A DNA stretch of 49,456 bases from a virus (Duplodnaviria > Caudoviricetes). The notes under the pieces were generated by a model. The model did no database searches, was not told the DNA's origin, and worked only from the letters and a program-made list of their open reading frames with translations. The position numbers were made by a program, and so were the translations under genes. The first letter of the stretch is position 1. Every line of letters begins with the position of its first letter. Shown here in pieces: positions 14,621-16,270 of this stretch. The stretch lies in the IMG/VR virus record IMGVR_UViG_3300023197_000205, positions 1 through 49,456 of that record; one strand, written 5' to 3'.

Positions 14621-14723
14621 GGCTGACCGGTCGGGTGGTGTTCATGTAAGCGCCAGCCATGGGCGCGGTGAAAGTGAAAGTGTCTGACGTACTATTATAT
14701 CACCACAGGCGGATCGGTCGCCT

Positions 14724-15668
14724 ATGTCACAACAGGCACCACAGGCGCAAGGGCCGCCGCGGGTCGTCGTGGCGAACGCGAAAGGCGGCGTCGGGAAGAC
14801 CACCATCGCGGCGAACCTCATCGGCGGGCTCAGCGAACAGGGCTACGACGTGCTCGGAGTCGACGCCGACCCGCAGGGCAACCTCACCGAGGCGTTCGGC
14901 TTCTTGGACAGCTACGAGCGCGACCCGCCGACGCTGTTCGACGTGCTGCTCGACCACGGCTCCCGTAACACCATCGCGGAGATCCTGGAGCACGGCGATG
15001 AAGCAGATTTGGTCCCCAGTTCGATCGACATGCTCGGGTCGTCGGAAGAGCTCGCCGCTGCCCACTTCCTCGCGAAGCTGCACAACGACCCGGACTACGC
15101 GCTCGAACCGGAGTTCCTCGAGGACGTCACCGGAGTCTTGGAGATGCTGACCGAGCTGGTGACGCCGGCGACGGTCGGGGGCGACCCCCACGGCTACGGC
15201 CTACTGGACGACGCGCTCGACCACGTCGACGGCGACTACGACGTCGTCGTGATCGACGCGCCGCCGGGGCACAACCCGATGTTCAAGAACGCGCTCTACG
15301 CCGCGCCGAATCTCGTGGTCCCCGCGACGGCCGAGGCGAGCTCGAAGGGCGCGGTCGACCGCCTGTTCGACGAGGTCGCCGCGTTCGAAGAGGAGACGGA
15401 TGTTGCCGTCGCCGAGCGCTTCGCCGTCGTCAACCGGATCCGCATGAGCACCAAGGCGGCCGACCAGATGACGGCGTTCCTCAAGGAGGTGTTCGACGAC
15501 GTCCCCGTGTTCGAGGTCCCCGAGCGAGTGTCGCTGTCCTACGCGTACGACGCCGGCGAGTCTATTTTCCAGTACGAGCCCGATGCGGACGTCGCCGAAA
15601 CGTTCGCGGACGCCGCCGCGCACCTGGCCGACGATCTCGGCCTTGGGCCTGCAGGTGATGCGCGATGA
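14724..15668 (+). CDS. parA: ParA/Soj family partition ATPase
   Basis: Deviant Walker A NAKGGVGKTT; DADPQGN; YDVVVIDAPP. Confidence 0.95.
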   Translation: MSQQAPQAQGPPRVVVANAKGGVGKTTIAANLIGGLSEQGYDVLGVDADPQGNLTEAFGFLDSYERDPPTLFDVLLDHGSRNTIAEILEHGDEADLVPSSIDMLGSSEELAAAHFLAKLHNDPDYALEPEFLEDVTGVLEMLTELVTPATVGGDPHGYGLLDDALDHVDGDYDVVVIDAPPGHNPMFKNALYAAPNLVVPATAEASSKGAVDRLFDEVAAFEEETDVAVAERFAVVNRIRMSTKAADQMTAFLKEVFDDVPVFEVPERVSLSYAYDAGESIFQYEPDADVAETFADAAAHLADDLGLGPAGDAR

Positions 15669-16270
15669 GCGACGACACCGACGAGGAGCTGGACGAGGAG
15701 GACCAGGACCGCCTCAACCGCGTCCGCGGGAAGCGGGACTCGCGGCGCTCGCGACGGCGCCGGAACGGTGGAGAACAGGCCCCCGATCCGAAACAGGGGC
15801 CACAGGCGGCCGATGGGGAACAGGAACAACAGGCGCAACAGGCGGAACAGGCAGAACAGGTTGCGGGTAGTACCGAGGCCCCGACAGCGTCGACACAGGC
15901 GACACAGGCGGCACAGGAACAACAGGGGAAAGGGTCGGGACAGGCGGAACAGGCGCCCGAGCCGGAACAGGCGCAACGGGAAGAAGGGGAACAACTGGAG
16001 CCTGTGACGGCACGGGAGCACGACACGTTCTATCTCGACGAGGACGTCCGCGCCGAACTGACGCGTAGCTACCGGCGCGTCGCGCTTGACGTCCTGGAGG
16101 AGACCGGCGTCGACATCGACGACCAGGCGGTCGGCGGCCGGAACCGCTACTTCCGACCGCTCGCGCTACTGCTGGGGGCCCGCGAGCTGGAGGACATGTC
16201 GCCGGCGGAGCTCCGCGAGACGATCGAAGCCGAGGACCTCGTCGACGATTTACCGGATCCCGACGAGTGA
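15665..16270 (+). CDS. ParA partner, putative centromere-binding protein
   Basis: ATGA-coupled to parA; Arg-rich N-terminus, Q/E/A linker, RHH-like C-terminus [12 protein letters not shown]...RNRYFRPL. Confidence 0.75.
15775..15971 (+). repeat. Fifteen ACAGG copies in two 9-bp-phased blocks
   Basis: Starts 15775, 15793, 15802, 15820, 15829, 15838, 15847, 15856 and 15895, 15904, 15913, 15922, 15940, 15949, 15967. Confidence 0.85.

Follow-up and report, generated by a model that had tools for sequence, protein, structure and literature searches.

The partition systems closest in organisation to the locus described here are those of type Ib, whose centromeres, as described, precede the operon (PMC5016525). 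For the bacterial plasmid pCXC100, the ribbon-helix-helix (RHH) protein ParB is reported to bind nine 9-nt direct repeats by successive dimers (PMC3074162), and ParG of TP228 is reported to use one tetramer box, direct or inverted, within its operator as well as its centromere (PMC3130281). A partition site inside a coding sequence is described for Bacillus subtilis, where parS-359 lies within parB (PMC4442127). In polyploid haloarchaea replicon upkeep has so far been barely understood, the first system, HpaAB, dating from 2026. HpaB of Haloferax volcanii plasmid pHV3 is described with six AT-rich hpaS3 sites, all reported upstream of coding regions, and the strain used for ChIP lacked the native hpaB (PMC13722703). 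The right arms of the haloarchaeal viruses phiH1 and phiCh1 are reported to maintain the provirus outside the chromosome in circular form (PMC6471424), and the ParA partner of phiH1 is given as uncharacterised (PMC6210493). Besides HpaAB, no tested haloarchaeal partition system was found in the literature; a repeat centromere that forms the linker of its adaptor, or the adaptor family treated here, was likewise not found described in the literature covered, which includes few subscription journals. One paper considered as a precedent was set aside, as it deals with mRNA structure (PMC13371061).

The operon analysed here encodes a Walker-type ParA and a partner from a different adaptor family than HpaB, a family to which the proteins of the model viruses phiH1 and phiCh1 also belong. 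The DNA that encodes the partner's disordered linker is a phased repeat array matching a motif in the operon promoter. Judging from sequence comparison, the partner likely binds this array as centromere and the promoter copies as operator; we put the probability of this reading at roughly 0.68.

Replicon context of the par operon

The window, by which we mean the whole stretch of 49,456 nucleotides that was analysed, is a tailed virus of a haloarchaeal host with a RepH replicase. It encodes portal and tail proteins, two tyrosine recombinases, RepH and a terminase-like protein, and a likely capsid gene was read by eye. The RepH-type plasmid replication protein (43916..46567, minus strand; PHROG 17376, 7e-159) shares 45% identity with RepH of ChaoS9, 32% with that of phiH1 and 30% with that of phiCh1. 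A related terminase and ParA are present on a 49.4-kb Natrinema plasmid, and together with the RepH kinship this makes a plasmid-prophage state of the window virus likely. The Natrinema replicon (N. thermotolerans A29 plasmid unnamed4, CP031301.1, our locus L061) carries its terminase, J-domain gene and parA in an order that resembles the window and is therefore probably a plasmid prophage itself; the annotated start of its partner gene is apparently too late.

Two related short tyrosine recombinases (PHROG 216) are encoded at 8371-9045 and 16656-17366, one of them directly downstream of the par operon, similar to int2 near parA in phiH1 and phiCh1. The protein encoded at 38623-40107 adjoins the packaging genes and shows an exonuclease-family match (PHROG 284), with a weak sigma-factor-like (HTH) match in its N-terminal part. 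The ATG of a minus-strand open reading frame forms the very end of the record (49454-49456). Such an end point suggests that a circular genome has been rotated; no terminal repeat was found in the record.

ParA and its partner protein

ParA (14724..15668, plus strand) is a Walker-type ATPase of 314 amino acids (Pfam AAA_31 3e-30, CbiA 6e-21; PHROG 164 ParA-like 1e-41). Its Walker A box, KGGVGKT, occupies residues 20-26, so that an N-terminal HTH has no room, as in type Ib proteins. The partner gene (15665..16270, plus strand) overlaps the parA stop by 4 nt and encodes 201 amino acids of the DUF8160 family (PF26492). This domain is precomputed in 32 of 34 partner homologs and the Atlas neighbours of the partner are DUF8160 proteins, while the window partner itself gave zero matches against the local Pfam copy.

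The partner is laid out as an acidic, Arg-rich N-terminal helix, a disordered linker and a C-terminal domain. Its AF2 model shows a helix at residues 11-28, pLDDT below 50 for residues 34-118 and a folded C-terminus. The C-terminal domain (15995..16267, plus strand) contains H-D-T-F-Y-L (H119, T121, Y123), followed by helices, and is predicted to form a homodimer, with a score of 0.69 against 0.00 for the best control, contact agreement between runs of at least 84% and pLDDT of at least 72. The mark applied to such predictions is passed by 20 of 30 solved pairs and by 1 of 23 single chains. Domain residues 7-16 are part of the predicted interface.

An RHH fold of this domain is plausible. Its top VIA match is the N-terminal domain of TraM (Z 4.4, rmsd 2.4, 49 aligned), which we take to be an RHH domain. 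The RHH proteins XACb0070 (Z 3.6) and pCXC100 ParB (Z 3.2) also match. Unrelated helical proteins tie with these hits, the TraM match included, and all scores stay below Z 5. Foldseek searches with the full-length and domain models of the partner gave no match, and a profile search of PDB sequences with the partner gave nothing below E 0.27.

A repeat array within the partner gene

The linker-coding DNA contains 15 copies of ACAGG in two blocks on the plus strand, both of them candidate centromere DNA. Block 1 (15775..15860) comprises eight copies, starting at 15775, 15793, 15802, 15820, 15829, 15838, 15847 and 15856, and block 2 (15895..15971) comprises seven, at 15895, 15904, 15913, 15922, 15940, 15949 and 15967. 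Spacing within the blocks is 9 or 18 bp, and 39 bp separate the last copy of block 1 from the first of block 2. This arrangement agrees with a preliminary description of the DNA, which had also claimed an A-ending codon before each CAG against the codon bias of the genome. That claim is borne out: all 15 copies stand in one codon frame, NNA-CAG-G, of the 201-aa gene, and the codon before the linker CAG (GAA, AAA, CCA, CAA, ACA, GCA or GGA) ends in A in 15 of 15 cases, with P = 2.4e-12 given the residues and the codon usage of the window. Among the other genes of the window, 46 of 393 CAG codons follow an A. The remaining five linker glutamines are encoded by CAA, three of them directly before a CAG. 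Since the wobble A is invariant while codon positions 1 and 2 vary, the constraint acts on the DNA and not on the protein.

The densest 200 bp of the window hold 15 ACAGG, as compared to at most 5 in 30 third-order Markov simulations. Next in density comes the 5' end of parA, with four copies, and no second ACAGG array was found anywhere in the 49-kb window. A contig of run X1, which may be the source of the window and is thus not independent, spans the array with zero differences or gaps.

The promoter region and the 5' end of parA

A TATA-like box identified from the sequence (ATTATAT, 14694..14700, plus strand) lies about 27 nt before the parA ATG, and we infer that the transcript is leaderless; for phiH1, the start of the parA transcript T7 has been mapped to 5 nt ahead of the ATG. 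The element GTCTGACG (14682..14689, plus strand) precedes the TATA box. Of the 102 loci compared below, 59 have GTCTGAC in the 80 nt preceding the parA start, mostly 40-45 nt before the ATG. Because GTCTGAC(G)/GTCTGACG is common to lineages with differing repeat motifs, it is probably a promoter element read by the host, possibly the site of a host regulator or a TFB variant. Elsewhere on the replicons GTCTGAC(G) has only a modest frequency. A scan for sigma-70 promoters found nothing, the sigma-70 model not being applicable to archaea.

According to the preliminary description, ACAGGC recurs upstream, just after the TATA-like box. The copies are indeed present at 14705, 14732 and 14741, with gaps of 27 and 9, but those at 14732 and 14741 lie inside parA (ATG at 14724), which leaves 14705 as the only non-coding one. 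The ACAGG at 14705..14709 (plus strand), between TATA box and ATG, is a likely operator site, and CCACAGGCGG at this copy is an exact 10-mer common to promoter and linker. The two ACAGG at 14732..14745 (plus strand), 9 bp apart, fall in codons 3-8 of the N-terminal extension of ParA (MSQQAPQAQ). Mimicry of the linker by the ParA N-terminus (QQAPQAQ) was considered as the main cause of this likeness and rejected, as non-coding and reverse copies match too.

Close relatives and a natural motif swap

Fifteen loci, counting the window, share at least 55% identity in the C-terminal domain. At these loci an A precedes 179 of 200 linker CAG codons, with 35 expected; for the parA core the count is 10 of 62 and for the domain 8 of 16. 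Here, too, the wobble A is the invariant base and codon positions 1 and 2 vary. Excluding locus L029, 131 of the 181 gaps between ACAG copies are multiples of 9 (14 loci). The interval between TATA box and ATG contains reverse CCTGT at nine of the 15 loci and the forward motif at three (one has both); four have neither. ACAGG is found within the 5' coding part of parA at 14 loci, and the fifteenth, L029, has AGAGG there twice.

L029 (56% domain identity) is a natural swap of the motif. The window has 15, two and one ACAGG in linker, parA 5' end and promoter, respectively, and zero AGAGG, whereas L029 has AGAGG in the same numbers, with one additional reverse copy in the promoter, and zero ACAGG. 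Along with AGAGG, the linker has E where that of the window has Q. Four complete plasmids show clustered ACAG-N5-ACAG pairs in the linker and at the parA 5' end only, the other matches being isolated.

Promoter-linker covariation across the family

Searching with a broader partner profile (E<=1e-4, weak matches included) gave hits in 60 of 152, 98 of 201 and 66 of 201 genomes of three haloarchaeal families. The loci used were the best 30 per genome search, together with those from several further searches; 127 parA-partner pairs yielded 105 distinct ones, 104 of them with sufficient upstream DNA, and after L053 and L144 were dropped, which have no separate promoter, 102 loci in 13 lineages at 50% identity remained, phiH1 and phiCh1 included. 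Start codons were assigned automatically, that of L061 being ambiguous. No partner homologs were found in viral_contigs, nor, with a narrow domain query, among GenBank phages; phiH1 and phiCh1 were reached via ParA.

Averaged over the 13 lineages, 4-mer recurrence in the linker DNA was 0.097, 0.073, 0.063 and 0.072 at lags 9, 18, 27 and 36, respectively, and did not exceed 0.018 at lags 3, 6, 12, 15 and 21. The 30 nt before the parA ATG, taken as the promoter, covered their own linker with 5-mers at about 0.343, versus 0.189 with lineages permuted (z 6.8, p 5e-5). The own linker was the best promoter match in 11 of 13 lineages, and own coverage exceeded cross coverage in 10 of 13 disjoint nearest-neighbour pairs. 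As a control, domain-coding DNA gave z 1.1 at 50% clustering; finer clusterings raised this to z 3-5, and the linker then reached z 8-10. Downstream DNA gave z 1.1 and DNA 120-150 nt upstream z 2.0. Matches restricted to the reverse strand remained at z 4.7, and none of 200 dinucleotide-shuffled promoters attained the observed coverage (0.254 against about 0.343). The preliminary description had asked whether linker repeats of homologs match the motif at their own promoters; over the 102 loci they do, with lineage-specific motifs. The feature is thus family-wide in haloarchaeal plasmids and viruses and not peculiar to the window virus.

These data also bear on a neutral or protein-level origin, in which slippage of a three-codon unit would have made the low-complexity linker, and local gene conversion or base composition would account for its match to the promoter. 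The protein repeat by itself accounts for roughly half of the recurrence at lag 9 (0.053 of 0.097), the weak z 2.0 of the DNA 120-150 nt upstream fits such an origin, and composition does contribute, as shuffled promoters (0.254) exceed the cross-lineage value (0.189). Against it stand the constancy of the wobble A although non-synonymous positions vary, the significance of non-coding matches on the reverse strand and a period of 9 rather than 3, 6, 12 or 15. The switch from ACAGG to AGAGG, moreover, hits three separate places. We consider a neutral origin highly improbable.

In 7 of 13 lineages the real linker outperformed its synonymous resamplings (median p<0.05). The lineage of the window had a median p of 0.09, with 6 of 15 loci beating the resampling, as compared to 10 of 38 loci in the largest lineage, which has 38 members; no locus did so in the four single-member lineages L032, L034, L048 and L051. 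When ten whole replicons, three of them close relatives of the window, were scanned with 5-mers seeded from the promoter, the linker came first on seven and second on two. As a 150-bp site it ranked 1 of 246 in the window, 1 of 295 in phiCh1 and 1 of 292 in phiH1; on the replicon of L018 its rank was 98 of 287. With 6-mers the linker was first on 6 of 10 replicons.

Individual loci show the match directly. In phiCh1 a linker 12-mer recurs reversed in the promoter, and in phiH1 reversed promoter matches lie upstream of the mapped transcript start. Promoter and linker share a 15-mer in L033 and a 13-mer in pNG200; in pNG300 an ACAG array precedes parA in non-coding DNA, in addition to the one in the linker. 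A lineage of 25 members (L073-L087, L114-L120, L145-L149) has AACGAA arrays not only in the linker but also, as long non-coding stretches, in the parA leader. At L047, L049, L099 and L101-L103, GCAAAAC-type repeats are located upstream of the TATA box and not between TATA and ATG, so that the 30-nt test undercounts this lineage.

The binding protein and the role of the array

The identity of the binding protein may be considered separately from the role of the array. Another protein encoded by the replicon (ParA, RepH or a repressor) could bind the repeats, or these could act on the mRNA. A test for a recognition code relating partner residues to motifs, run on 25 representatives with overall identity corrected for, did not reach significance (top r 0.25, p 0.07), which fits such a view, and its top-scoring column falls outside the putative strand; by eye only, H-x-T-x-Y accompanies ACAG in 4 of 5 lineages. 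The motif is limited to the par operon, however, and its covariation extends over plasmids and viruses whose gene neighbourhoods differ. In ParA there is no space for an N-terminal HTH, and the reverse copies of phiH1, lying upstream of the mapped start, are outside the mRNA. A host factor is an unlikely binder because different par operons of one genome carry different motifs (L001 and L028, both of genome G001). Binding by another protein or a role in the mRNA thus appears very unlikely, and the partner is the probable binder. Comparison among the loci lends strong support to a cognate DNA site inside the adaptor gene.

Centromere function of the array is likely, the linker array being the best candidate because it is the sole array of centromere size here and sits in the adaptor gene. 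The partner could instead bind it for autoregulation only, as a roadblock, by looping to the promoter or by titration, with a centromere near the promoter or elsewhere. Every covariation result fits this equally well; type Ib centromeres are normally upstream of the operon (PMC5016525), and L020 and L073 have long upstream non-coding arrays that could be the centromere instead. In the window, on the other hand, the promoter region has three phased copies and the linker 15, and the 49 kb contain no other array. The confinement of clustered ACAG-N5-ACAG pairs on the four complete plasmids to linker and parA 5' end also argues against autoregulation only, as does the copy number of known centromeres of this type, reported as 9-12 (PMC3130281, PMC3074162). 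We regard a purely autoregulatory array as rather unlikely.

In the preferred reading, with the array as centromere and the promoter copies as operator, dimers of the partner (predicted, with an RHH-type strand presumed) would load side by side, one per 9-bp repeat, over the 8+7 copies. The Arg-rich N-terminal helices would then engage nucleoid-bound ParA-ATP, by which copies of the plasmid prophage would be spaced out as in type Ib systems and HpaAB. Partner bound at 14705-14745 would act as a repressor of the operon. The Q/E/A composition of the linker would be a by-product of the DNA motif, and a change in binding specificity would shift promoter, parA 5' end and linker jointly, allowing several replicons to coexist in one cell. 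As a counterpoint, transcription across the array could strip bound protein from it.

For the family as a whole we think it fairly probable that a widespread haloarchaeal adaptor encodes the centromere in its own low-complexity linker, the motif dictating the linker amino acids, the two-gene cassette being a partition module complete in itself and concerted change of promoter, parA 5' end and linker giving rise to new specificities (compatibility groups). If this holds, the binding sites of many uncharacterised adaptors could be read from their own genes and replicon compatibility would be explained. The linker would also be a clear example of a disordered protein region under selection at the DNA level, and the operon would provide a 1.6-kb stability cassette for haloarchaeal vectors. 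The 25-member AACGAA lineage (L073 and others) is well suited to a comparison of upstream with intragenic arrays.

Comparison with known partition systems

With a Walker ParA lacking an HTH, a downstream partner and phased repeats common to the operator and the candidate centromere, the system appears type Ib-like from its sequence. It lacks the type Ib trait of a main array upstream of the operon, the 15 copies within the partner gene being a variant feature. Membership in type II (R1 ParMRC) was rejected, as the actin-like ParM motor is absent and the motor is a Walker ParA. Both type Ib and R1 parC had been put forward as models in the preliminary description; the former comparison stands, with the 9-bp repeats of pCXC100 ParB and with TP228 ParG/parH, and the latter was dropped.

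Similar to type Ib pCXC100, the window operon has a Walker ParA, a C-terminal dimeric domain (predicted here) and 9-nt repeats (PMC3074162). Unlike in the bacterial plasmid, its main array lies inside the adaptor gene and codes for protein, and the structural match of pCXC100 ParB to the window domain is weak (Z 3.2, rmsd 4.8, 47 aligned). With the described ParFG-parH/OF system of TP228 it shares a short core box that occurs with a fixed period in promoter and array, both direct and inverted. The TP228 repeats are reported with an 8-bp period and AT-rich spacers, all 5' of the genes, whereas those of the window have a 9-bp period and spacers set by codons. Like the B. subtilis site parS-359 as described, the array lies within the gene of the (here putative) binding protein. 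The parS-359 site belongs to a ParB system of the HTH/CTPase type and is palindromic. It is a single site, whereas the window has a tandem array that forms a protein linker and covaries with the putative operator.

HpaAB resembles the window operon in being a haloarchaeal parA with a small partner and a 4-nt overlap. HpaB, too, has an N-terminal helix, a disordered part and a C-terminal domain, and the H-x-x-x-Y spacing is the same (H70/Y74 in HpaB, H119/Y123 in the window). HpaB (HVO_B0017) and the window family show no detectable homology (2.9 bits; hhalign probability 1.2%), and a remote kinship at the level of the fold is possible. The hpaS sites are AT-rich and dispersed upstream of genes, whereas the window motif, ACAGG, is clustered at the par operon only; no linker array was seen in the hpaB gene. 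The H. volcanii partners of pHV3, pHV4 (A0002) and pHV1 were not accepted by the family pipeline, and no obvious promoter-matching 9-bp array was seen for them by eye. One HpaB ChIP peak, bordering HVO_B0019, which is divergent from hpaA, probably lies in the hpaA upstream region. Two copies of AGATTATT occur 9 bp apart upstream of hpaA (L056; pHV3 18348-18362), and GGATAAT, related to AGATTATT, is found just after hpaB. The AGATTATT pair may be an AT-rich hpaS3 site, which would then share the 9-bp period.

Counterparts within the family are the par operons of phiCh1 and phiH1, in which the partners are annotated merely as uncharacterised or hypothetical. ORF46/47 of phiCh1 (ORF47: hhalign 97%, E 1e-11) and PhiH1_265/260 of phiH1 (PhiH1_260: 103 bits) belong to the same family as the window pair and, with motifs other than ACAGG, show the same match between promoter and linker.
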